Notes: generated by a model not told the origin, from the letters alone. A stretch of DNA of 54,172 bases from an uncultured Atribacterota bacterium (GCA_964438695.1 CAYTKP010000003.1:1-54172), one strand, 5' to 3'. Shown: positions 930 to 34,442, counted from the first letter of the stretch. Made by a program: numbers and translations.

Positions 930-1460
930 ATGGAGAAAACATTGGTTTTAATAAAACCCGATGCATTTAAAAGAGGCCTGGTTGGAGAAATAATTTCCAG
1001 GTTGGAAAGAACAGGACTGAGATTGGAGGAAATAAAAATAGTAAATGCTACTATTAAAATTTTAGAAAACCATTATCCTGATGACAAAGATTGGATTAGA
1101 TCTGTCGGTAAAAAGACTGTAGATACTTATAAAAAATATAATTTAAATATTGCAAAGGACTTGGGCACTAAGGATGCTCTGAAAATTGGGAAATTAGTGA
1201 GAAAATGGTTGATTCGACATCTAACTTCTGGGCCTATAGTTGTTATTATATTAAGTGGAAACCATGCTGTTGAAATTGTACGAAAATTAGTAGGGAATAC
1301 CGTCCCTCTTTTTGCTGAACCGGGAACTATAAGAGGTGATTTTTCTGTAGATTCACCTGATATATCTACTAGAGAAGGACGAGCGTTACAAAATTTAATT
1401 CATGCTTCAGAAACTGTTGAAGAGGCAAAGAGAGAAATTTCTGTTTGGTTTGGAATTTGA
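930..1460 (+). CDS. ndk: nucleoside-diphosphate kinase (long form with an internal insertion)
   Basis: N-terminal TLVLIKPDAF, PGTIRGDF and the active-site region NLIHASE (NxxH[GA]S[DE]). About 30 extra residues follow ENHYP compared with ~145-aa NDKs. GGAG RBS upstream. Confidence 0.85.
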   Translation: MEKTLVLIKPDAFKRGLVGEIISRLERTGLRLEEIKIVNATIKILENHYPDDKDWIRSVGKKTVDTYKKYNLNIAKDLGTKDALKIGKLVRKWLIRHLTSGPIVVIILSGNHAVEIVRKLVGNTVPLFAEPGTIRGDFSVDSPDISTREGRALQNLIHASETVEEAKREISVWFGI

Positions 1461-1623: not shown

Positions 1624-1845
1624 ATGCAAAAAAGAGTAGAAGCTGCTTTGGAGAAAATAAGACCGTCTCTGCAGGCAGATGGTGGAGATGTTGAATTATT
1701 AGAAGTTACTTCTGATGGGATAGTGAAAGTGAAACTTACCGGTGCCTGTGCAGGTTGTCCAATGAGACAGATGACTTTACAGATGGGGATTGGTAGGGCA
1801 TTAAAGAAAGAAGTTCCTGAAATAAAGGATGTTGTAGCAGTATAA
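1624..1845 (+). CDS. NifU C-terminal-domain (Nfu-type) Fe-S cluster carrier
   Basis: 73 aa with IRPSLQADGGDVELLEV and the CxxC motif GACAGCPM, typical of Nfu/NifU-C. Strong GAGGAGG RBS. Confidence 0.8.
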   Translation: MQKRVEAALEKIRPSLQADGGDVELLEVTSDGIVKVKLTGACAGCPMRQMTLQMGIGRALKKEVPEIKDVVAV

Positions 1846-1954: not shown

Positions 1955-1984
1955 TTGAAAAATTTAATGATTTTCAGTTATAAT
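1955..1984 (+). promoter_or_regulatory. sigma70-like promoter for the giant ORF
   Basis: TTGAAA (1955-1960), 18-bp spacer, TATAAT (1979-1984). Such matches occur by chance in AT-rich DNA. Confidence 0.4.
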
Positions 1985-2030: not shown

Positions 2031-5000
2031 ATGTTTAAAGCCACAAGTAGAGCATTATCAGAAGAGATATCAAGAAAGATTATGAATCCTGAAATATTGG
2101 ATATTGCTTCTCAGCAGAAAAATTTTGTCAAAAAATATATTGAAAGTCCTGAGTTTTCGAATAAATTATTATCTATAATAGAAAATAAAGATTATAGCTG
2201 CCAGGCAGTTTATGCTTTATGTCAGGACATACTTAATACAATAGACAAGAAACATAATTCCCATAATTGGCTTTATAAAGTATATCAATTTGCCTTATCT
2301 CAATCTTTTCCCGAGGCAGTGGAACTTTCTTTTGAAGATATCTCCGATAATTGTCGGAAGACTTTCTTATTATATTTAGAAGTTTTAAGAGTGATATCAG
2401 AGTACCAAAAGTCTTCTGATGATTCTACTTTTCAAAGTAAATATCCCCTAAATTTTCTGACTGCTGAAGAAAAATCTAAATTAGAAAAACCCGCTGAATA
2501 TAAAAGGTTTATAAAGGCATTTAAGGATGAATATATTTATGAGATGATGAAACTAAGTCAGGAAGTATTAAATTATAATACCCTTGACCATATATGTGGG
2601 GTTAACTGGATTGCTTTATTTATTGGTCGCCAATTATATAGTAGGGGTCTTCCAGTTGATTTAGCGAGAGTTTCAGGGGCAGCAGTGGGACACGATATAG
2701 GGAAATATGGGTGTAAAAGTATCGAAAGAGAGAGAACTCCTTATTTGCATTATTATTATACTGATATGTGGTTTAAAAAGCATAATATTCCTTACATCGG
2801 ACATATTGCGGTCAATCATTCCGTCTGGGATTTAGAATTAGAAAATCTACCTCTGGAATCTCTTATTTTAATCTATTCTGATTTTCGGGTAAAAAACGAA
2901 AATAATAATTCCAATATAAAGAAGATGAAGATTTTTACGCTTAAAGATTCTTTTCAAGTAATTTTGAGTAAATTAGATAATGTTGATGAAAAGAAGAGAA
3001 GAAGATATTACCGGGTATATGCAAAATTAAAGGATTTCGAAGATTATATGGTAAATTTGGGAATAAATGTTGATTTAGATCATAAAGAAATGCAGTTACC
3101 GCCAAAAAGTAGAAAATTATATTATTCACTTATGCATAGCCAGGAAGTTATACAAAATATAAAATATCTTGCAATAGAGCATAATATAAACTTAATGTAT
3201 GAACTTCGAGACGAATCTTCTCTAAATTCGCTGTTAGAATTAGCTCGAAGTGAAAAAGACTGGAACAACCTACGGGAATATTTACAAATATTTAATGAGT
3301 ATTCCACTTACTTAACTCAAAGACAGAAAATGATTACCTTGCGATTTTTATATGAACAATTGACTCATCCTGAAGATGAAATAAGGAGGAGAAGTGCAAA
3401 ACTCATCGGTCGATTAATTGCTACTTTTGACGAAGATTATCGCAAGGAAATTCCCTCGGATGTTAATATTGAACCTCCGGCTATTACCAGTTATGATTTA
3501 TTAAATAGATACTTAAAGTATTTTTTACAGCCAGACTACAAAAAAATCCCCCTCCACCAAAATCGAATCATAAATAGTACTGATATTATGATTTCTTCTC
3601 TTTTTGCAAATAGTCGAGATAATCAGGTAAGTCATTATAGAGAAATTATATTAAGACATTATAAAAGGGATTTATATGATAATGAAGTTGTTCAATTATG
3701 TTTAATAAAAGCTGCCAAATATATCCCTATATCTTCTGATGATAAAAAATCTTCACCGAGGCTATTTAATTATGTTTTAGAAATGCTGAAAAAGAAAAAT
3801 ACTAATTTGAGACTTTTAGCCCTGGAGACAACCCTGTATATGATATCTCAGCTTAATGGAAAATCAAAATTCTTGATTCCTTTGCGGCAGATCTTTACTA
3901 ATAATATTTCAAATTCGACAATTCCAGCGGAAAATTTTTTAAGAATGAAAATAGTCGAATCAATAGAATTAGATAACAAAATTATAGAAAAACATAGAGA
4001 ATTTCATCATAAAGATCTGGAAAAAATACAGTACATATTCTTGAGTAATCTCAAAACTTCGACGAGCTGGATAATCAAAAAAATACAGATACAACTATTG
4101 TTAGAATATACATTAAAGGCTAAGCAAGAAGAAATATACACAGCTTTACATTTTTGTAATATCTTAAAAGTGAGCGGCGTAGAAAGTATTAGAAACTTAG
4201 CCGGACAGACCTTGATAAATTTGATGCCTAGTCTATCGTTTGAACAACGAAATGATATTGCCATTGAGCTATTGCGAGCTTTGGAGATGGAAGATTATCA
4301 ATTTACTAAATATATCCCTTATTATTTAGGTCAGTTAATAAATTTTCTCCCTCCTAATGAGTTAGAAGAACTTATTGATGATTTAATAGAAAAGATAAAA
4401 CAATCAGATCCCAAATTAAGTTCTTTATTACTTAGAACTATCGGGATAACTATTGCTAATTATCCAAAATACAAAGAAAGATTTCAAGAAAGCAGAAAAT
4501 CATACGAAAATAAACTTAACAAAATGATTGGTATTCTTTTGAATGGTTTTGTGCATTACAGTTTTCAGGTTAAACAAGTAGCTTTTAGAGTTATTGGGAA
4601 GGAAATATTTGGTTCAAAACACCTTAGTTTAGAGGATAAAAACCATATATTTCAGCTCATTGCTAAAAAAATTCTAACCTTGCTTACTCCAATTAGTAAA
4701 GAGGGATTAATGTTTTTAAGTACCTGTAATGGACTTAACTATACATATAAATTTATCTCAGATTATAATTTCTTCAAAGGTAGAATAAACCTTAAGGCTC
4801 CATTGAAGATAGCTTTTTTCCCGGGTTCATTTGACCCTTTTTCTTTAAGCCACAAAGAAATAGTTAAGAAGATAGAGGCGCTTGGTTTTGAAGTATATTT
4901 AGCAGTTGATGAATTTTCCTGGTCTAAAAGAACTCAACCCCATCTTTTCAGGAAGAATATAATAAATATTTCTATTGCTGATGAACTTAAGGTATATTTA

Positions 5001-6959
5001 TATCCTGAGGATTTACCTGTTAATATTGCCAACCCGAATGATTTACGAGCTTTAAGAAGTAATTTTCCGTCTTCTGAGCTTTATATGGTAGTGGGGAGTG
5101 ATGTAATATTAAGTGCCTCTGCTTACCAAAAGGAAAAGACAGAAAATTCTATACACACCTTTCCTCATATTATATTTGATAGAGGAACTTCAAATATTAG
5201 CAACGAGAGAGAAAAAAATATTGAAGAAGCTATTAAAAATATTGAAAAAGAGATTATTATCCTTAATCTAACTCCCCAATATGAAGAGATAAGTTCAAGT
5301 CAAATAAGAGACAATATTGATGAAAATCGGGATATTTCTAAATTTATCGATCCTTTAGCCCAAAAATATATTTATGAGAATAATTTATATCAAAGAGAAC
5401 CACAATATAAGAGTATAATGCAGACGATTTCTATTGATGTGCAGGTAATTGAAGATATTACCTCACATTTAATAGAAGAGCTTTACTCTAAAATATTTTT
5501 TCAACATAATCGGGAATATATATTTAAAAAGTTTAATGAATTTTCTCATAAATTAAATCCCAGGTTTTTGCTTTTACGTGATCTTGAGCATAATGGGATG
5601 TTGTTGGGGTTTTCAGCTTTTCATTGGGTTCGCTCAAGTATTCTCTTCCAGGAGTTTAACAACAATATAATTTCTGAGTATATTAGAGAAAATGCAATTG
5701 GTCGCATAATAGTTATTGATGGAATTTTTACTATAAATGAGGCCGGAAATAAATCAGAATTTGAAAATCTTGAACAGATTATTCTTACCGAGACTATTTC
5801 TTATTGCATCCAAAAAGATTATAATTACACAATTTTTAGGAATATTTTGGATAATTATAGTTTAAATTCTCTGTATGAGAGTTTAGAATTGATGGGATTT
5901 TATCGCTTACCATTTAGTGAGGAAGATAATCCAGTATTTGTAGTAGATATGAGTAAACCCTGCATAATTAATCTGGAAACAGAGAGTGTGATAAAAGAAC
6001 CCTTTAACCAAAATTTAAATATTAAAAAATCAATTATTAAATCCCGAAGGAGATTATTGAAATCATTAACTTCCTTTTATTCTGGGAATATTGTGTTACC
6101 ATTTAACATAAATTTAATCAATCAGACCATTGTTAAGAAGATATGCAAATTAAATAATGTTCCAACAATACCTTTGACTCCTCGAGTTCTGGGAGAGTCA
6201 ATATGTGTGCCCTTTGGAAAGATACTGCATAAAATGGTGGTTCCAAATACGGTAACCAAATCTCTGCATACTGAAAAAATATTTTCTTCTGATATGAAAA
6301 GTTTTAAAATCGACGCTTTCCCTAATTATATGAATTTGGAAAACCAGGTAAAAGTTGTTAGTTCGTTTAATATGCCGGTGATTCTAATTGATGATTATCT
6401 ACATAAGGGTTATAGAATAAAGACCTTGGAACCTCTTTTCCAAAAGTATGATGTTAAAATCAAAAAGATAATTTTGGGGGCATTGTCTGGAAGCGGAAAA
6501 GAAATTGCTTCCCTCCTAAACAGAGATGTTGACTCTGCTTATTTTATCCCTAATCTCAGAATATGGTTTAACGAAAGTGAATTATATCCTTTTATTGGAG
6601 GAGATGCAATAAAGCGAAAAAGTAGATCTCAAGGGAATTTAGTTCGATCTATTAATTTAATCTTACCCTATACCTTTCCTTCATTTATAAAAAATGTTCC
6701 TGGGAAAATTATTTATAACTTTTCTAAGGTTTGCATGGAAGGCGCCTTGACTATTTTAGAAACCCTTGAAGATGAGTACCAATCAATTCAACAAAGAAAG
6801 TTAACTCTTAGTCGTTTAGGGGAAGTAATTATTTACCCTCGCTATCCTGATCAGGGAGAAAATATGGAATATAATTTAAGTCTTAGTCCCTCTCATTATT
6901 TGAAGAATGACCTTGAGCTTTTAGAACGGATGGGAGAAATGGTGGATAGGGAAATATAA
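2031..6959 (+). CDS. 1,642-aa multidomain protein: HD phosphohydrolase + HEAT/ARM-like repeats + NadD/NMNAT-like nucleotidyltransferase + possible GNAT-like region + PurF-like phosphoribosyltransferase domain
   Basis: Uninterrupted 4.9-kb ORF in AT-rich DNA. HD core at aa ~185-290 (LDHICG, VGHDIGKYG, IAVNHS, IYSDFRV). Helical repeats at aa ~300-900. Nucleotidyltransferase at aa ~925-1120 (FFPGSFDPFSLSH as the HxGH variant; EISSSQIR as the ISSTxxR-like motif). PRPP-loop-like VILIDDYLHKGYRI at aa ~1450-1463. Confidence 0.6.
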   Translation: MFKATSRALSEEISRKIMNPEILDIASQQKNFVKKYIESPEFSNKLLSIIENKDYSCQAVYALCQDILNTIDKKHNSHNWLYKVYQFALSQSFPEAVELSFEDISDNCRKTFLLYLEVLRVISEYQKSSDDSTFQSKYPLNFLTAEEKSKLEKPAEYKRFIKAFKDEYIYEMMKLSQEVLNYNTLDHICGVNWIALFIGRQLYSRGLPVDLARVSGAAVGHDIGKYGCKSIERERTPYLHYYYTDMWFKKHNIPYIGHIAVNHSVWDLELENLPLESLILIYSDFRVKNENNNSNIKKMKIFTLKDSFQVILSKLDNVDEKKRRRYYRVYAKLKDFEDYMVNLGINVDLDHKEMQLPPKSRKLYYSLMHSQEVIQNIKYLAIEHNINLMYELRDESSLNSLLELARSEKDWNNLREYLQIFNEYSTYLTQRQKMITLRFLYEQLTHPEDEIRRRSAKLIGRLIATFDEDYRKEIPSDVNIEPPAITSYDLLNRYLKYFLQPDYKKIPLHQNRIINSTDIMISSLFANSRDNQVSHYREIILRHYKRDLYDNEVVQLCLIKAAKYIPISSDDKKSSPRLFNYVLEMLKKKNTNLRLLALETTLYMISQLNGKSKFLIPLRQIFTNNISNSTIPAENFLRMKIVESIELDNKIIEKHREFHHKDLEKIQYIFLSNLKTSTSWIIKKIQIQLLLEYTLKAKQEEIYTALHFCNILKVSGVESIRNLAGQTLINLMPSLSFEQRNDIAIELLRALEMEDYQFTKYIPYYLGQLINFLPPNELEELIDDLIEKIKQSDPKLSSLLLRTIGITIANYPKYKERFQESRKSYENKLNKMIGILLNGFVHYSFQVKQVAFRVIGKEIFGSKHLSLEDKNHIFQLIAKKILTLLTPISKEGLMFLSTCNGLNYTYKFISDYNFFKGRINLKAPLKIAFFPGSFDPFSLSHKEIVKKIEALGFEVYLAVDEFSWSKRTQPHLFRKNIINISIADELKVYLYPEDLPVNIANPNDLRALRSNFPSSELYMVVGSDVILSASAYQKEKTENSIHTFPHIIFDRGTSNISNEREKNIEEAIKNIEKEIIILNLTPQYEEISSSQIRDNIDENRDISKFIDPLAQKYIYENNLYQREPQYKSIMQTISIDVQVIEDITSHLIEELYSKIFFQHNREYIFKKFNEFSHKLNPRFLLLRDLEHNGMLLGFSAFHWVRSSILFQEFNNNIISEYIRENAIGRIIVIDGIFTINEAGNKSEFENLEQIILTETISYCIQKDYNYTIFRNILDNYSLNSLYESLELMGFYRLPFSEEDNPVFVVDMSKPCIINLETESVIKEPFNQNLNIKKSIIKSRRRLLKSLTSFYSGNIVLPFNINLINQTIVKKICKLNNVPTIPLTPRVLGESICVPFGKILHKMVVPNTVTKSLHTEKIFSSDMKSFKIDAFPNYMNLENQVKVVSSFNMPVILIDDYLHKGYRIKTLEPLFQKYDVKIKKIILGALSGSGKEIASLLNRDVDSAYFIPNLRIWFNESELYPFIGGDAIKRKSRSQGNLVRSINLILPYTFPSFIKNVPGKIIYNFSKVCMEGALTILETLEDEYQSIQQRKLTLSRLGEVIIYPRYPDQGENMEYNLSLSPSHYLKNDLELLERMGEMVDREI

Positions 6960-6994: not shown

Positions 6995-7055
6995 CTTTTT
7001 TCGTGGAAATAACAGAGAACGTTTCAGAGATAGGGTGAAGGGGGGAAAATTAAAT

Positions 7056-8300
7056 ATGTTTTACTATAAAGTAAAAGATAAGATACTAATTTCCCAATCT
7101 AAATACAATGGATTAAAAAGAATATCGGAAAGTGAAGCAAAAGACAGTAAAGGTATAATCTATGCTCTTACTCAGATAAATCCTTTAAAGTCCAGAAGAA
7201 GTTTTAGCGTTACCGATTCATCTCTAATCTTTTTAAAAGAAGAGGGAATACACTTACTGCAAAAGTCTAAGAAGATTGATTATGATTTAGCAATATGGAT
7301 TAAAGAAAGAATTAAAGAAAAAAGAGTAAGTTCACTTAATACCGAATATCCTGATTGGCAAGATGTGATAACACATCAATTTCCTGGTTGTTGGAAGATT
7401 AATATTGTAGGACTGGGAGATGTGGGAGGAACTCTTCTTACTGGATTAAGATTATTGGGTGGGAAATATATCAAGAGTATTGGGATATATGATAAAAATG
7501 TTAAACTTGTAAAAAGATGGGAATTAGAAGCAAATCAGATATTTTATTCTTCTGGGTCTCAGATATATCCTGAAGTATATGCTTTAAAGGAAAAAGAAGT
7601 TTTTGATTGTGACTTATTTATCTTTTGCGCTACAGTAGGTGTTCCACCCGTGGGAGGAGACCAAAAAGATGTAAGAATGACTCAATTTGAAGGAAACTCT
7701 AAAATAATTTCTGATTATGCCCAGAAAGCTCGGGAAAAATCATTTAAGGGAATATTTGCAGTGATTTCGGACCCGGTTGATTTATTGTGTAAATATGCTT
7801 TTTTAGTTAGTAATAAAGATAAAAATGAAAAATTTGATTTTAAAGGATTAGCAGCAGAACAGATAAGGGGATATGGTTTAGGGGTTATGCATGCCCGAGC
7901 AGTATATTATTCTAAGCAAAATCCCAAGACTGCTAATTATTATCAAGAAGGTAGAGCATTTGGCCCTCATGGCAAAGGTTTAGTAATTGCCAATAATATA
8001 AAAAAGTACGATGAAAGACTTTCCGAGAGGCTTACCAATCAGACCTTAAAGGCAAATTTAGAAATAAGAAAGGTCGGCTTTAAACCTTATATTGCCCCCG
8101 CCTTGTCTTCAGCCTGTTTCCCAATTATCGCTACTATCAGAGGGAAGTGGCATTATAGTGCAACTTTTATGGGAGGAGTGTATATGGGTGCGAGAAATAG
8201 ATTACATAATTCTGGGATTGAAGTTGAAAGATTGGATATCCCCATTTTATTATTTGAAAAAATAAAGAAGAGTTATGAAGAATTAGGTAATATTTTGTGA
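7056..8300 (+). CDS. divergent lactate/malate dehydrogenase-superfamily protein with a ~110-aa N-terminal extension
   Basis: Rossmann KINIVGLGDVGGT, IYD acidic residue, FCATVGVPP, ISDPVDLLCKYA (cf. VSNPVD) and FGPHGKG (cf. GEHGDS). ATG 7056 follows a GAAGGGGGG RBS; the ORF track starts at GTG 7035. Confidence 0.6.
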   Translation: MFYYKVKDKILISQSKYNGLKRISESEAKDSKGIIYALTQINPLKSRRSFSVTDSSLIFLKEEGIHLLQKSKKIDYDLAIWIKERIKEKRVSSLNTEYPDWQDVITHQFPGCWKINIVGLGDVGGTLLTGLRLLGGKYIKSIGIYDKNVKLVKRWELEANQIFYSSGSQIYPEVYALKEKEVFDCDLFIFCATVGVPPVGGDQKDVRMTQFEGNSKIISDYAQKAREKSFKGIFAVISDPVDLLCKYAFLVSNKDKNEKFDFKGLAAEQIRGYGLGVMHARAVYYSKQNPKTANYYQEGRAFGPHGKGLVIANNIKKYDERLSERLTNQTLKANLEIRKVGFKPYIAPALSSACFPIIATIRGKWHYSATFMGGVYMGARNRLHNSGIEVERLDIPILLFEKIKKSYEELGNIL

Positions 8301-8341: not shown

Positions 8342-9391
8342 ATGGAAAGTATTTATTTGCTAATTCCCGGAAAGATATCAAATAGTTTTTCTGATATTAT
8401 AAAAAAAGCTACAGCAGGCTATAATCAGATAATTATTAAAACATTTGAAGATATTACGGACCTAAAAAATAAGAAGATAGTTTTTGCTATAGAATTAGAT
8501 GAATGTGGATTTAATATTTCACTATTCGAGATACTTTTAAAATTACGAAAAAAAGGAAATGATTCTCTTCTTGGTTCAAGTGCAGTAATTATAATTCAAA
8601 GCCCCAGTGAATTATTTACAAAAAATATTGCTCAAAGAATAATTTTTTTAGCCAGCCTGATGGGTTGTAGGTTCCCAGGTCATCCAGTTGTAGAGGCAAC
8701 CAATAATCTCCACAATTTTATTACCTGGCAAAAAATCTACAATTTGTCCCTTAAGGAAATTTATCAAAAACAAGCAAAAGAACTAGTAGATAAATTAATG
8801 GATGAAAAGCCTATCTTGATTAAAAATCCTAAAATGTTAGTCCTTCACTCCAGCTCATTTAAAACTTCTAATACTCTGATGCTCTGGCAGATGGTTAAGG
8901 AAAATTTGAAAATAAAAAACTTAAGGGAATTACATGTGGAAAACGGCACTGTAGTAGACTGTAGAGGATGTTCTTATAAAACCTGTGTCCATTATAGTCA
9001 AGAAAAAAGTTGTTTTTATGGAGGAATAATGGTAAAAGAAATTCTTCCGGCAATTGAGGATGCAGATTGCACAATCTGGCTATGCCCTAATTATAACGAT
9101 GCTATATCTGCAAAACTTATGGCAGTAATAAATAGGCTGACGGTACTCTACAAGAGAGTGAGATTCTGGGACAAAAGTCTGTTTTCCATCATTGTTTCCG
9201 GAAATTCTGGTAGTGATTGTGTAGCTGAGCAATTATTAGGGGCTTTAAATATTAATAAGGGATTTAGATTACCTCCTTATTTTGTCTTAATGGCTACTGC
9301 TAATGACCCAGGTGCAATCAGGAAAATTAAGGGGATAGAGAAAAAAGCGGTAAAATTTGCCCGGAATATAATGAAAGAATTTAAAAATTAG
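8342..9391 (+). CDS. two-domain flavodoxin-fold protein; the C-terminal half resembles NADPH-dependent FMN reductase / iron-sulfur flavoprotein
   Basis: C-terminal domain MLVLHSSSFKTSNT...CRGCSYKTCVHYSQEKSC...DADCTIWLCPNYNDAISAKLMAVINR matches the flavodoxin-like FMN reductase pattern with a Cys cluster. ATG 8342 is preceded by AGAGGA; the ORF track starts at 8318. Confidence 0.5.
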   Translation: MESIYLLIPGKISNSFSDIIKKATAGYNQIIIKTFEDITDLKNKKIVFAIELDECGFNISLFEILLKLRKKGNDSLLGSSAVIIIQSPSELFTKNIAQRIIFLASLMGCRFPGHPVVEATNNLHNFITWQKIYNLSLKEIYQKQAKELVDKLMDEKPILIKNPKMLVLHSSSFKTSNTLMLWQMVKENLKIKNLRELHVENGTVVDCRGCSYKTCVHYSQEKSCFYGGIMVKEILPAIEDADCTIWLCPNYNDAISAKLMAVINRLTVLYKRVRFWDKSLFSIIVSGNSGSDCVAEQLLGALNINKGFRLPPYFVLMATANDPGAIRKIKGIEKKAVKFARNIMKEFKN

Positions 9392-9405: not shown

Positions 9406-10437
9406 ATGAAGAAGAAAGATATTAAAGATTTTACTTTAGATGAATTAAAGAAAAAATTTGAAGATTTAGGAGAAAAAAAATTTAGAGCAACTCAGTTATT
9501 TTTTTGGGTTTATAAAAAAGGTACAGAAGATTTTAATGATATGTCTGATCTTCCCGTAGTATTTAGAAAATTTCTTCACAACAACTTTTATCTTAGCAAT
9601 ATAGAATTATTAAAATTTGTTAAATCTAAAGACAAAACTGAAAAGTACCTGTTAAGATTAGAAGATGGAAGTGTAATAGAAACTGTTCTAATATTTTCAA
9701 GTAGGGGGAGGATAACTGAATGTATTTCCTCGCAAGTCGGGTGTAAATATAATTGCTTATTCTGTGAAAGTGGCAAAAAAGGTTTTACCAGAAACCTTAC
9801 GGTTAGCGAGATTTTAAATCAAGTTTTATTTGTTAAGAAAAAGATGCAGTCTAATCCTCACAATATTGTTTTTATGGGGATTGGGGAACCTTTAGATAAT
9901 TACGATAATGTTATAAAAGCAATTTGTATATTAAATTCCAAAGAGGCCTTTAATATTGGAGCAAGAAAAATCACTATTTCTACCTGTGGGATAATACCGG
10001 CAATAAGAAAGTTACAAGAATGTAATTGGCAGGTAGAATTATCAGTATCTCTTCATGCCTCCGAAAACAAATTAAGGTCTTATTTGATGCCAGTTAACAA
10101 TAAATACCCTTTATATGACTTAATAGAAGTTTGTAAAAATTATGTGAAGAAAACAAATAGGCAAATTACTTTCGAATATATTTTGATTAAAGGAATAAAC
10201 GATTCTCTTAATTATGCTGATAAATTAGCTAGACTAATTGGAGGATTTAATTTTAAGGTAAATTTAATCACTTTTAATCCTACTTCTGGTTCTCTGCTAC
10301 AATCGCCTGATATTTCACAAATTAAATCCTTCAAGGAAAAGTTATTAGTTAAAAAAATCCCTACTACTATAAGAATATCTAAGGGCAGTGATATATCTGC
10401 TGCCTGTGGTCAACTAAAGAGTCTTTATCTAAAATGA
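9406..10437 (+). CDS. rlmN: 23S rRNA/tRNA adenine-C2 methyltransferase, radical SAM
   Basis: FRATQLFFWVY N-terminus, radical-SAM CKYNCLFCESG, and C-terminal SAACGQL. Confidence 0.92.
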   Translation: MKKKDIKDFTLDELKKKFEDLGEKKFRATQLFFWVYKKGTEDFNDMSDLPVVFRKFLHNNFYLSNIELLKFVKSKDKTEKYLLRLEDGSVIETVLIFSSRGRITECISSQVGCKYNCLFCESGKKGFTRNLTVSEILNQVLFVKKKMQSNPHNIVFMGIGEPLDNYDNVIKAICILNSKEAFNIGARKITISTCGIIPAIRKLQECNWQVELSVSLHASENKLRSYLMPVNNKYPLYDLIEVCKNYVKKTNRQITFEYILIKGINDSLNYADKLARLIGGFNFKVNLITFNPTSGSLLQSPDISQIKSFKEKLLVKKIPTTIRISKGSDISAACGQLKSLYLK

Positions 10438-10573
10438 CTTTAAAAATATTGATTTATTTTATTATTTTTCTTATGTCTTATTGGATCGTCAAGTAAAAAA
10501 GAATAGCATTAATCATTATAATATTTTCTCTTTACATGATAAGAGGTACTGAATACACAATATTAAAATATTC

Positions 10574-10601
10574 TTGACTTTCTATGTATATCTGTTATAC
10601 T
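10574..10601 (+). promoter_or_regulatory. sigma70-like promoter for the tRNA gene
   Basis: TTGACT (10574-10579), 16-bp spacer, TATACT (10596-10601), about 26 nt upstream of the tRNA 5' end. Confidence 0.55.
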
Positions 10602-10627
10602 TTTAACGAAGATAATTACTTGATTAC

Positions 10628-10703
10628 GGGCCCATAGCTCAGCTGGTAGAGCAACCGGCTCATAACCGGTCGGTCCCTGGTTCGAATCCAGGTGGGCCCA
10701 CCA
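10628..10703 (+). tRNA. tRNA with CAU anticodon (elongator Met, or Ile2 if lysidine-modified), with encoded CCA
   Basis: Hand-folded cloverleaf: acceptor GGGCCCA/TGGGCCC, D arm GCTC-AGCTGGTA-GAGC, anticodon arm ACCGG-CTCATAA-CCGGT, T arm CCTGG-TTCGAAT-CCAGG, discriminator A, CCA. G1-C72 pairs, so it is not an initiator. Confidence 0.9.
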
Positions 10704-10770
10704 TTACTAACAAGGATAGTAAATTATATGAGTAAGTATATGAGAATAAAAAAATATTACTTTTTTTAAA

Positions 10771-10806
10771 ACCTTACTTCTGCCACATAAGAAGTAAGGT
10801 TTTTTT
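10771..10806 (+). terminator. intrinsic terminator after the tRNA
   Basis: 10-bp stem ACCTTACTTC/GAAGTAAGGT, followed by TTTTTT. Confidence 0.8.
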
Positions 10807-11692: not shown

Positions 11693-12150
11693 CTTATAAG
11701 TAGACCAGGTAATCGCGGAAGAAGAATAATTTCTTTCGAGGAAAGTCCGAGCTCCGTAGGGCAAAGTGCTGGGTAATCCCCAGTGAGGGTGACCTCAAGG
11801 AAAGTGCTACAGAAAATATACAGCCTGGTACCCAATCCCAAAATTAATTAGAAAAGATAGTTTTAAGTTTAAAAAATGAATAAAAAAGATTTTTTAAAAG
11901 TAATTTAATCTCAGGATTGAGTGCCGGGTAAAGGTGAAAAGGTAGGGTAAGAGCCTACCAGTTGTTAGGTGACTAACAAGCTTAGTAAACCCCACTTGGA
12001 GCAAGACCAAATAGGAAGAGTTGTGGTGGCCCGCTGAATCTTCGGGTAGGTCGCAAGAGGTGTAAAGTAATTTACATCCCAGAGAGATGATTACCGCCCC
12101 TATCATTAATAGATAAGGGAACAGAACTCGGCTTATGGTCTACTTATAAG
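11693..12150 (+). ncRNA. rnpB: RNase P RNA, bacterial type A
   Basis: P1 pairing CTTATAAGTAGACC / GGTCTACTTATAAG. Conserved P4 strands GAGGAAAGTCCGAGCTC and ACAGAACTCGGCTTA. GGTAAAGGTGAAAAGGTAGGGTAAGAGCCTACC module. AT-rich extension of ~75-95 nt in the P12 position. Confidence 0.92.
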
Positions 12151-33379: not shown

Positions 33380-33543
33380 GTCTTTATTGAGAAAAAAATA
33401 AAGAAGTCGAAGAGGTAAAATGCTAAAGTATCTAAACTATAAGGTAAAGCGAACATTACCTTATAGAAGGCTGGAAAGTTTTTTAATAAACACCGAAGGG
33501 GTAATTTTCAATATTTTGGAAAAATCTCTCAGGTAAAAAGATA
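33380..33543 (+). promoter_or_regulatory. glycine riboswitch: one well-conserved aptamer preceded by a degenerate or ghost aptamer
   Basis: Aptamer at ~33467-33543: CTGGAAAG (33471), CACCGAAGGGGTAA (33491-33504), P3 hairpin TTTTC/GAAAA, and CTCTCAGGTAAAAAGA (33526-33541). These match the GGAGAG / CACCGAAGGGGCAA / CUCUCAGGCAAAAGGAC core. Upstream there is a degenerate copy (GTCGAAGAGGTAA 33406-33418; CTATAAGGTAAAGCGAAC 33437-33454) and an 11-bp hairpin (33437-33466). Confidence 0.7.
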
Positions 33544-33581
33544 GGGTAAAGAAATTTTGTGGAAATTTCTTTACCCTTTTT
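33544..33581 (+). terminator. riboswitch expression-platform terminator
   Basis: Perfect 14-bp stem GGGTAAAGAAATTT/AAATTTCTTTACCC plus TTTTT. Its 5' arm abuts or overlaps the 3' end of the aptamer, consistent with a glycine-ON design. Confidence 0.75.
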
Positions 33582-33614: not shown

Positions 33615-34442
33615 TTGAACCGAAATTTTAAGTTAGAAGAATCTGGACAAATAAAATATCTAAAATGTAGACCATTAGATAACACCGACTTGGTAATCAA
33701 TGCTTTTACCACTCGCTTGGGTGGAGTAAGTAAATATCCCTTTGATAGCTTGAATTTATCTTATAATATTGGCGATAAAGAGAGTTGTGTTGTAGAGAAC
33801 AGAGAGATAATTGCTAATATTTTGGGTATCAGTTATCGAAATATTGTATCTGCACAACAAATTCACAGAGATAAAATAACTGTGGTTAGAGAAGAAGATA
33901 AAGGAAGAGGAGCTTTCAAATATACTAAGGCTTTAGCAGAAACTGATGCTTTAATTACCAATGTCTCTAGAATTCCGCTTTTAATGTGTTATGCTGATTG
34001 TGTACCAATTTTTATCTTAGATCCCATCAAGAAAGTTATTGGATTAATCCATAGTGGAAGGAGAGGGACGGAACTGCAAATAACTTCAAAGACCTTAAAT
34101 AAGATGCAAGAAATATTTGACACAAATCCTCAATCTTGCTTAGCTGCTATTTTTCCTTCCATTGGTCCGTGTTGTTACAAGATTAAAAATCAAAGTCGAA
34201 TTAATGATTATTGGATGAACAAGAATAATTTTAGCCATAAAATAGTCTCTATACAAAACGAAAATGAACTAAGCCTTGATTTAAAAAAAGCAAATTATTT
34301 ACAGCTAATCAAAGGTGGAATAGAAAAAAAGAATATTTTTGTTAATGAAATTTGTACAGCAGATTATCCAAAACTTTTCTTCTCTTACCGAAGAGATAAA
34401 GGAAATACAGGCCGTATGGCTGCTATCTTTATGTTAAAATAA
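33615..34442 (+). CDS. pgeF: YfiH/PgeF (YlmD) family protein: peptidoglycan editing factor / purine nucleoside phosphorylase-laccase domain
   Basis: FTTRLGGVS, SLNLS, AQQIHRDK, DALITN, CYADCVPI and IHSGRRG motifs of DUF152/YfiH. TTG start after AGGAAGAG. Confidence 0.8.
   Translation: MNRNFKLEESGQIKYLKCRPLDNTDLVINAFTTRLGGVSKYPFDSLNLSYNIGDKESCVVENREIIANILGISYRNIVSAQQIHRDKITVVREEDKGRGAFKYTKALAETDALITNVSRIPLLMCYADCVPIFILDPIKKVIGLIHSGRRGTELQITSKTLNKMQEIFDTNPQSCLAAIFPSIGPCCYKIKNQSRINDYWMNKNNFSHKIVSIQNENELSLDLKKANYLQLIKGGIEKKNIFVNEICTADYPKLFFSYRRDKGNTGRMAAIFMLK

Follow-up and report, generated by a model that had tools for sequence, protein, structure and literature searches.

The closest known system to the one presented here is the NadD-YqeK pair or fusion of Firmicutes and mycoplasmas, which joins a nicotinic acid mononucleotide (NaMN) adenylyltransferase with an HD-type diphosphatase/diadenosine tetraphosphate hydrolase (PMC9426524, PMC7186459). 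In the mycoplasma fusion, the HD domain hydrolyses analogues of nicotinic acid adenine dinucleotide made by NadD (PMC9426524). We analysed a 54,172-nucleotide stretch of DNA from an uncultured Atribacterota bacterium (GCA_964438695.1, CAYTKP010000003.1:1-54172; the window), in which a single open reading frame (ORF) encodes a 1,642-amino acid (aa) protein with an HD domain and a NadD-like nucleotidyltransferase (NTase) in one chain. This gene is the first of a conserved three-gene module, being followed by genes for a nicotinamide adenine dinucleotide (NAD)-type dehydrogenase resembling lactate dehydrogenase (LDH) and for a putative iron-sulphur (Fe-S) flavoprotein. From the sequence and by analogy with known systems, we tentatively favour the view that the large protein is a cytosolic multifunctional enzyme by which an ADP-linked nucleotide metabolite would be made and hydrolysed in cooperation with the two redox partners. 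The gene and the domains of its product are as follows, where AF2 stands for AlphaFold2, PRTase for phosphoribosyltransferase and PRPP for phosphoribosyl pyrophosphate.

2031..6959, plus strand: coding sequence, with an ATG start, of the 1,642-aa multidomain protein (type A architecture)
2448..3065, plus strand: HD phosphohydrolase domain, aa ~140-345 (profiles, motif residues)
3123..4775, plus strand: HEAT/ARM-type alpha-solenoid, aa ~365-915 (AF2, Foldseek, Pfam)
4128..4340, plus strand: best-conserved patch of the solenoid, aa 700-770, TALHFCNILKVS...VRN.AG...EQRND...YIPYYLGQ
4803..5399, plus strand: NadD/NMNAT-like NTase domain of the (H/T)xGH superfamily, aa 925-1123 (Pfam, NCBIfam, Foldseek)
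5433..5975, plus strand: GNAT-fold domain, aa ~1135-1315 (AF2, Foldseek)
5979..6956, plus strand: type-I-PRTase-like domain with C-terminal helices, aa ~1317-1642 (profiles, Foldseek)
6375..6416, plus strand: PRPP-loop-like motif PVILIDDYLHKGYR (D1454, D1455, G1460, R1462; aligned to the HPRT and Prs loops)

The G+C content of the window is about 30%. Given the base composition of the region itself, 8.4% of codons would be stops by chance, which puts the probability of 1642 open codons at about 1e-63; the remaining five frames contain 81-203 stops. A preliminary description of this DNA had argued that such an ORF is not open by chance, and these figures bear it out. A database search returned the identical protein (P0001) and 2,955 relatives, and a Shine-Dalgarno-like GAGG lies upstream of the ATG at 2031; the 1,642-codon ORF is a real gene. 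The short motifs picked out by eye in the preliminary description were all found in place: LDHICG (H187), VGHDIGKYG (H221-D222), NHS (H263), YSDFRV (D284), FFPGSFDPFSLSH (aa 929-941), EISSSQIR (aa 1086-1093) and VILIDDYLHKGYRI (aa 1450-1463, positions 6378-6419). Its inventory of domains and their order (HD, HEAT-like scaffold, NadD-like NTase, weak GNAT, PRTase-like) also agree with the profile and Foldseek results.

The structure was predicted with AF2 as two separate halves, from a shallow alignment of 41 relatives. The model of aa 1-925 had a mean predicted local distance difference test score (pLDDT) of 88 and a predicted template modelling score (pTM) of 0.85, while the model of aa 916-1642 had a pLDDT of 82 and a pTM of 0.82. 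When the half-models were compared with the Protein Data Bank (PDB) by Foldseek, the results were dominated by the strongest domain of each half (NadD and HEAT), which masked the HD, GNAT and PRTase folds. For this reason, a library of viral predicted structures was used for the C-terminal half. Profiles and models together support five folded domains, namely HD, HEAT solenoid, NadD/NMNAT-like NTase, GNAT fold and type-I-PRTase-like fold.

The NTase is the only part of the protein that exceeds a curated threshold on the single sequence, aa 929-1094 matching Pfam CTP_transf_like (PF01467) with 26.8 bits against a cut-off of 21. Its motifs are GSFDPFSLSH (H941) and ISSSQIR (R1093), the first ATP motif reading S-L-S-H941 in the window protein and S-L-G-H in the family consensus. 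The NadD/NMNAT likeness proposed earlier is well sustained by the structural comparison, since the top 50 PDB matches of the C-terminal half were all NadD/NMNAT (E down to 3e-8, TM ~0.7); NMNATs were matched also among the viral predicted structures. Residue conservation was followed in 273 family proteins aligned to a family hidden Markov model (HMM), 199 of which cover all three catalytic regions. Among these 199 full-length relatives, H941 is kept in 189 and R1093 in 194.

The relatives are named in databases either 'cytidyltransferase' or 'nicotinate-nucleotide adenylyltransferase'/NadD, with EC 2.7.7.18, and the best NCBIfam model is TIGR00482 (NadD, E 2e-13). Together with the structural matches, these results would suit a plain NadD, that is, a NaMN adenylyltransferase to which the other domains are accessory. 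However, the match to TIGR00482 reaches 50.7 bits, less than half of the equivalog cut-off of 112.45, and we rejected equivalog status on this basis; all the other NadD models in the NCBIfam scan were also far below their own cut-offs. Moreover, about 1,450 further residues carry four other conserved domains, some genomes contain two copies of the gene, and the catalytic residues of the NTase are dispensable in part of the family. We therefore consider a plain NadD very unlikely, and public records that give the name 'nicotinate-nucleotide adenylyltransferase' or EC 2.7.7.18 are probably over-annotated. A search with an NTase-domain HMM found no canonical nadD in the window or in the fetched loci, a result that has no bearing on whole genomes.

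The HD domain follows a helical N-terminal region (aa 1-139) and has as predicted metal ligands H187, H221-D222, H240, H263 and D284. The window protein alone matches Pfam HD (PF01966) with an E value of 0.04 and 14.6 bits against a cut-off of 22, but 19 of 29 diverse relatives match this family, the best with an E value of 2e-5. In addition, a profile of the HD region reached the HD protein 1xx7 (E 0.008) and the HD-GYP protein 4mcw (E 0.014) in the PDB. The H...HD...D motif is present, and the set H187, H221, D222, H263 and D284 is complete in 191 of the 199 relatives, in agreement with the HD domain of the preliminary description. The likeness to YqeK that had been suggested together with it did not hold: YqeK identity was rejected, as the NCBIfam scan at E<=1 contained no YqeK match, and the sole HD-type matches were TIGR00295 (E 0.03) and the DVU_1551 family (E 0.004).

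Between the HD domain and the NTase, aa 365-915 are all-helical in the AF2 model of the N-terminal half. The top PDB matches found for this half by Foldseek were the solenoids PP2A-A, importins, SF3B1 and CAND1, and Pfam HEAT is matched by 12 of the 29 relatives, so that the HEAT/ARM-like scaffold proposed earlier is well founded. H707, which lies inside the solenoid and within its best-conserved patch, is kept in all 199 full-length relatives.

A weak GNAT flavour had been noticed after the NTase. In the AF2 model, the secondary-structure elements of this segment follow the GNAT order b1-a1-a2-b2-b3-b4-a3-b5-a4-b6, and Foldseek matched it to more than 15 GNAT acetyltransferases among the viral structures (E 7e-5 to 8e-3, probability ~1.0), which gives substance to that impression. 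No match to Pfam acetyltransferase families was obtained with any of the 29 members. The acyl-coenzyme A (CoA) pyrophosphate motif (Q/R-x-x-G-x-G/A), which would lie between b4 and a3, was not recognised in the family consensus, where the corresponding loop (aa ~1235-1247) is variable.

The C-terminal PRTase-like domain shows the densest conservation in the whole protein, and for this reason it is unlikely to be a dead spacer. The window protein itself does not match Pfam Pribosyltran (PF00156); sub-threshold matches were obtained with 7 of the 29 relatives and 5 of 10 C-terminal fragments, the best having 21.9 bits against a cut-off of 26.3 (E 1.2e-4). When a profile of the C-terminal region was compared with 177,635 PDB sequences, the only matches at E<=10 were an HPRT (4rqa) and a PRPP synthetase (1u9y), and both alignments fall exactly on the PRPP loop. 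The predicted alpha/beta topology fits a PRTase, and Foldseek gives moderate support to the fold, with the OPRT domain of a UMP synthase (E 3.6e-3, probability 1.0) and a Tupanvirus PRTase (E 7.9e-3, probability 0.99) as matches, both of them predicted viral structures. A PRPP loop consists of four hydrophobic and two acidic residues followed by x-x-T-G-x-T. Comparison of VILVDD-LLHKGYR with VLIIED-ILETGTT of HPRT shows that the acidic pair is present, whereas the T-G-x-T phosphate clamp is replaced by K-G-Y-R. The DDGR pattern of this loop is kept in 177 of the 199 relatives, and the domain has the family-specific invariant motifs CVPFG, NTVTKxLHTEK, SGRGK and WFNE..YPFIGGD. The earlier assignment to a PurF-like PRTase thus stands as regards the type-I-PRTase-like fold, and fails as regards PurF: there is no N-terminal nucleophile (Ntn) glutaminase, no glutamine amidotransferase (GATase) match was obtained in any scan, the domain ahead of the PRTase-like fold is the GNAT, and the nearest proteins are HPRT, Prs, OPRT and UPRT.

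The family is widespread. With one genome scanned per species, relatives were found in at least 550 genomes of Atribacterota and many Clostridia (including Clostridium, Peptostreptococcales, Tissierellia, Sedimentibacter, Fusibacter, Anaerovorax, Alkaliphilus, Tepidibacter and Caloramator), and thousands more among metagenomic proteins. Full-length relatives have about 1,600-1,650 aa and are 41-76% identical to the query; across phyla, the identity of the ~1,630-aa full-length proteins is 42-57%. In the window protein, the catalytic signatures of HD and NTase and the acidic pair of the PRPP loop are intact. Among the full-length relatives, both the HD and the NTase residue sets are kept in 185 and both are lost in 5, while only one of the two is lost in 7 and 3 proteins, counts that take no account of phylogeny. 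Judging from these residue patterns, the predicted HD and NTase activities are functionally coupled. Five proteins of about 1,550-1,590 aa (P0152, P0157, P0160, P0190 and P0249) keep the whole architecture and H707 but have lost the HD ligands, H941/R1093 and the arginine of the PRPP loop (DDGE/DDCE); they are candidate pseudoenzymes.

According to the reading that we favour, the PRTase-like domain would bind, and probably make, a 5-phosphoribosyl compound, and the NTase would convert ATP and an X-5'-phosphate into ADP-X, a dinucleotide-type product, and pyrophosphate. To our knowledge, all characterised members of the NadD/NMNAT/PPAT/CCT superfamily transfer a nucleoside monophosphate from a nucleoside triphosphate to the phosphate (or carboxylate) of a small molecule, and because of this the NTase is expected to adenylylate a phosphate-bearing small molecule. 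The HD domain would cleave ADP-X or mis-made analogues of it, since its ligands (H..HD..H..H..D) are those commonly seen in binuclear phosphodiesterases and in diphosphatases, and YqeK offers a precedent alongside NadD. The HEAT solenoid would hold the catalytic domains and probably dock the two redox partners, and these may act on the metabolite, by oxidation or reduction of its base or side chain, or take it as a cofactor. The substrates, the order of the reactions and a physical complex are what we infer from the observed folds, motifs, conservation and linkage. The preliminary description had imagined a self-contained machine that makes and breaks a nucleotide or dinucleotide, an idea to which the joint loss of HD and NTase residues lends indirect support.

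Several points weigh against this reading. The co-loss count, as said, is not corrected for phylogeny, and the two halves were modelled apart, from 41 sequences, so that the models do not give the contacts between them. The NTase is not a NadD equivalog (50.7 vs 112 bits) and its acceptor is not fixed by homology. The GNAT domain is without a conserved acyl-CoA motif, and the PRTase-like domain might bind a ligand rather than catalyse, given that the T-G-x-T half of its loop is absent and no member reaches the Pribosyltran cut-off. The idea of a maker and breaker is complicated by the fact that the most conserved core consists of the HEAT patch and the PRTase-like domain and not of HD and NTase. 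H707 and the PRTase-like domain are the best-conserved elements and survive where the HD and NTase residues are lost; the core function may therefore be other than HD/NTase chemistry. The favoured reading does not account for the invariance of H707 and for the survival of the architecture without catalytic residues, and these keep the idea of a regulator or scaffold alive.

One explanation of this kind is a writer/eraser of the GlnD/GlnE type, in which the NTase would nucleotidylylate a protein, possibly a redox partner docked on the HEAT scaffold, and the HD domain would remove the mark. The PRTase-like and GNAT-like domains would then be sensors of ligands (PRPP, nucleotides or guanosine tetra- and pentaphosphate, (p)ppGpp, and acyl-CoA, respectively) and not catalysts. 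GlnD itself combines a transferase with an HD domain that removes its mark, and PRTase folds sense PRPP or nucleotides in PurR and PyrR. The size of the HEAT scaffold and the invariance of a patch on its surface (H707) suit protein docking, the non-canonical PRPP loop and the GNAT lacking a CoA motif suit sensing, joint loss of HD and NTase residues is what an opposing pair would be expected to show, and some lineages retain the architecture without any catalytic residues. However, we know of no (H/T)xGH member of the NadD/PPAT/CCT type that modifies proteins, all of them acting on small molecules; the C-terminal domain is conserved beyond the level usual for a sensor; and the kinase or dikinase partners of other architectures, described below, suggest the phosphorylation of small molecules. 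On balance, we regard a writer/eraser as unlikely.

To see which neighbouring genes are conserved, all ORFs from 85 loci were clustered. Two neighbours alone proved to be conserved, and they directly follow the large gene on the same strand: an LDH/malate dehydrogenase (MDH)-like gene in 76 of the 85 loci and an FMN_red-like flavoprotein gene in 67; the next family occurs in just 9. This confirms that the two downstream genes pointed out in the preliminary description are part of the unit. The features of the window that complete the module are these.

1955..1984, plus strand: sigma-70-like promoter, TTGAAA-18-TATAAT, 11 of 12 positions, the best match of the region (consensus match only)
7056..8300, plus strand: partner 1, a 414-aa dehydrogenase of the LDH/MDH superfamily with an N-terminal extension of ~110 aa
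8318..9391, plus strand: partner 2, a 357-aa two-domain flavodoxin-like/FMN_red protein

For the LDH-like gene, the ORF finder gave a GTG start at 7035 (421 aa); we take the ATG at 7056 as the true start because the homologues almost all have 414 aa. The protein matches an L-LDH/MDH profile across both domains (E 5e-9) and contains an NAD-type GxGxxG...D site and an invariant GLGDVGG. In an alignment mapped by eye, the invariant R207, R281 and H305 are equivalent to Arg109, Arg171 and His195 of LDH, and the position of Asp168 is occupied by an invariant Met. The flavoprotein, which has about 350 aa in its relatives, contains an invariant CxxCx4Cx8C motif (C215, C218, C223 and C232) that suggests an Fe-S cluster site; PDB sequence searches with this partner gave nothing useful. 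A further 'family' seen in 17 loci was discarded as an antisense shadow inside the large gene. In these loci, an ORF of about 125-150 aa lies on the opposite strand within the large gene (e.g. 8737-9114, minus strand, in L008), and it is most simply a shadow of conserved coding sequence, not a gene.

Variant architectures help to define which parts belong together. An exhaustive search with the C-terminal 518-aa module found it almost only within ~1,600-aa proteins, and in a separate clade, type B, of 1,050-1,290 aa, which starts at the solenoid and is without the HD domain. The type B gene overlaps the stop of the preceding gene in all four contexts examined. In three of them the preceding gene encodes a PPDK_N (ATP-grasp, dikinase-type) protein of about 860-895 aa, while in the fourth it is cut by the contig end.

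L085, 5317-8004: PPDK_N gene coupled to type B
L086/L087, 5426-8008: PPDK_N gene coupled to type B
L088, 633-3227: PPDK_N gene coupled to type B

The overlap points to translational coupling between the PPDK_N and type B genes. Sequence comparison with Pfam and the PDB found no match for the first ~290 aa or the last ~190 aa of the PPDK_N protein, and the protein shows no similarity to the missing HD region. Type B keeps the solenoid patch and all the C-terminal motifs, whereas the ATP motifs of its NTase are degenerate, H941 being changed to D in 7 of 11 proteins and the ISSTxxR arginine being lost in 7 of 11. No LDH-like or flavoprotein genes are present in the four type B contexts. Comparison of the architectures indicates that the two redox partners go with the HD/NTase pair, and that the invariant core of the superfamily, as far as sequences tell, is the solenoid with the block of NTase-like, GNAT-like and PRTase-like domains. 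A paralogous subclade (L003, L015 and L023; 64-72% mutual identity) likewise has neither redox partner; in L003 (5060-5986) and L023 (5016-5963), a kinase gene of the APH/choline-kinase family lies immediately before the start of the large gene. Crassaminicella contains both the paralogous and the standard copy. Genes for OB-fold, small HD and GGDEF proteins come after the paralogous copy in L003.

The kinase-type neighbours are among the arguments for a nucleoside diphosphate (NDP)-activation pathway, in which the LDH-like enzyme would make a 2-hydroxy acid, a kinase (the APH-type or PPDK_N-type of the variant operons) would phosphorylate it, the NTase would convert it into an NDP-linked intermediate, and either the GNAT-like or the PRTase-like domain would transfer it to an acceptor. 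Such a route would resemble those through lactyl-2-diphospho-5'-guanosine (LPPG) in F420 synthesis, CDP-choline or ADP-heptose, and the NTase superfamily does include CCT, TagD and the adenylyltransferase domain of HldE. Besides the APH/choline-kinase-family gene abutting the paralogous copy and the PPDK_N phosphotransferase-type protein coupled to type B, it finds some favour in the scores of PPAT, which lie near those of NadD in profile searches of the NTase, and in the equivalents of the substrate-binding Arg residues retained by the LDH-like partner. On the other hand, the NTase is clearly nearest to NadD/NMNAT, whose acceptors are mononucleotides, and the main operon, type A, has no conserved kinase gene in the 85 loci. 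Furthermore, type B has a dikinase but degenerate NTase ATP motifs, which means that kinase and NTase do not act in series there. These objections make an NDP-activation pathway quite improbable.

A role in small-molecule metabolism, which the favoured reading assumes, is supported by the LDH-like and four-Cys FMN_red neighbours, by the APH/choline-kinase gene of the paralogous copy and by the PPDK_N gene of type B. A narrower form of that reading, which we put forward as possible but doubtful, is that the module makes and turns over an undescribed ADP-linked redox cofactor or signalling dinucleotide specific to the strictly anaerobic Clostridia and Atribacterota. In this scheme, the PRTase-like domain would generate or retain a base-ribose-5'-phosphate, to which the NMNAT-like domain would add the adenylyl group; the HD domain would edit the product or break it down, and the LDH-like enzyme and the Fe-S flavoprotein would tailor it by redox chemistry or use it. 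The sister architecture would have swapped HD and NTase for the PPDK_N ATP-grasp enzyme.

The setting of the module in the window comprises ndk, a NifU-like ORF, rlmN, a tRNA gene, the RNase P RNA and the mraZ/dcw cluster. A defence system was considered and discarded, the three proteins having no PADLOC match at E<=0.01 and the neighbourhood being of housekeeping type. The promoter-like match ends 47 nucleotides 5' of the start codon of the large gene. A riboswitch or leader RNA in the 570-nucleotide upstream gap was also dismissed: there is no Rfam match, and the gap is occupied by the NifU-like ORF (73 aa; Pfam NifU, E 1e-28; 1624-1845, plus strand), which lies between ndk and the large gene and has its own terminator-like hairpin on its 3' side (~1880-1915). 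At 73 aa, this ORF was shorter than the 80-aa floor of the ORF listing, and the 93-aa ORF on the minus strand at 1605-1886 is its antisense shadow. The match of the ndk gene (176 aa; 930-1460, plus strand) to the NDK profile is split into two separate stretches, as if a few dozen residues had been inserted with respect to canonical NDK.

Downstream of the module, rlmN follows (9406-10803 region) without a detectable terminator; a tRNA gene is found at 10628-10700 and a strong terminator at 10768-10803. The module may therefore be co-transcribed with rlmN in the source organism. Only the window, L005 and L007, the three closest loci, have rlmN linked to the module; the linkage is absent from the Clostridia and distant Atribacterota loci. 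This arrangement bears on the idea of an RNA-directed enzyme, in which the solenoid would bind RNA, the NMNAT-like domain would make NAD-type caps by attaching a mononucleotide to the 5'-triphosphate end of an RNA, or the other way round, and the HD domain would decap. That helical-repeat solenoids can bind nucleic acids, and that the operon of the window runs on into rlmN and a tRNA gene, are circumstantial arguments for it. Against them, the rlmN/tRNA neighbourhood is confined to Atribacterota and not conserved, no RNA-binding domain was detected, and the redox partners would be unexplained; we hold this idea to be extremely improbable. Further along the window are a class A RNase P RNA (299 bits; 11697-12150), a division cluster (mraZ-mraW-ftsL-PBP) from 12488 onwards and, upstream of an ORF at 33615-34442, the aptamer of a glycine riboswitch (45.5 bits; 33461-33554).

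Literature searches found no study of this family of large proteins, only the NadD-YqeK work being relevant; Pfam and NCBIfam hold no curated full-length model, and the PDB contains relatives at the domain level only. The statement of the preliminary description that no characterised protein has such an architecture is in keeping with these searches. With its ~1,630 aa and its presence in two phyla and no fewer than 550 species-level genomes, the protein ranks among the larger conserved pieces of dark matter in the genomes of anaerobes. If the enzymatic reading is true, the Clostridia, among which are pathogens and industrial strains, would have an as yet unknown cofactor or signal of nucleotide type; if a regulatory one is true, this would be the first member of the NadD/PPAT superfamily to regulate a protein or pathway. 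Handles for experiments are offered by the occurrence of two architectures, by the loss of HD and NTase residues in concert and by the invariant solenoid His, and the likely systematic mis-annotation under EC 2.7.7.18 in public records is flagged here.

In comparison with NadD-YqeK, the large protein shares the presence of an (H/T)xGH adenylyltransferase and an HD phosphohydrolase in one chain or operon. The HD protein of that system hydrolyses the dinucleotides of the transferase, and among relatives of the large protein the HD and NTase catalytic residues are retained or lost as a pair. Unlike NadD-YqeK, the large protein has the HD domain first, with the ~550-aa HEAT solenoid between it and the NTase; the NTase is below the NadD cut-off and the HD domain matches no YqeK model; and NadD-YqeK has no counterpart of the GNAT and PRTase-like domains or of the redox partner genes and measures about 400 aa as compared to 1,642. 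The C-terminal fold is like that of HPRT, OPRT, UPRT and Prs according to Foldseek, and its hydrophobic strand and acidic pair align with HPRT and Prs. It differs from type I PRTases and Prs in having K-G-Y-R in place of T-G-x-T, in that no member reaches the Pfam cut-off, and in its invariant motifs (CVPFG and the others given above), which are without a mappable counterpart.

Citrate lyase ligase CitC is the only characterised combination of a GNAT fold with an HxGH adenylate-forming domain that we know of. Like CitC, the large protein has both domains in one chain, and one relative weakly matches Pfam Citrate_ly_lig (E 0.019). However, the order of the domains is reversed, NadD models score much better than Citrate_ly_lig, and no citrate-lyase genes are nearby in the 85 clustered loci. 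With RelA/SpoT homologues, GlnD and bacterial CCA-adding enzymes, the large protein would share a more general plan, in which a domain transferring nucleotidyl or pyrophosphoryl groups is combined with an HD domain that undoes or edits its product and with ligand-binding domains. Those proteins have transferases of Pol-beta or RelA-type fold and are without the HEAT solenoid, GNAT and PRTase-like domains, whereas the large protein has a Rossmann-like HxGH transferase in the company of all three.

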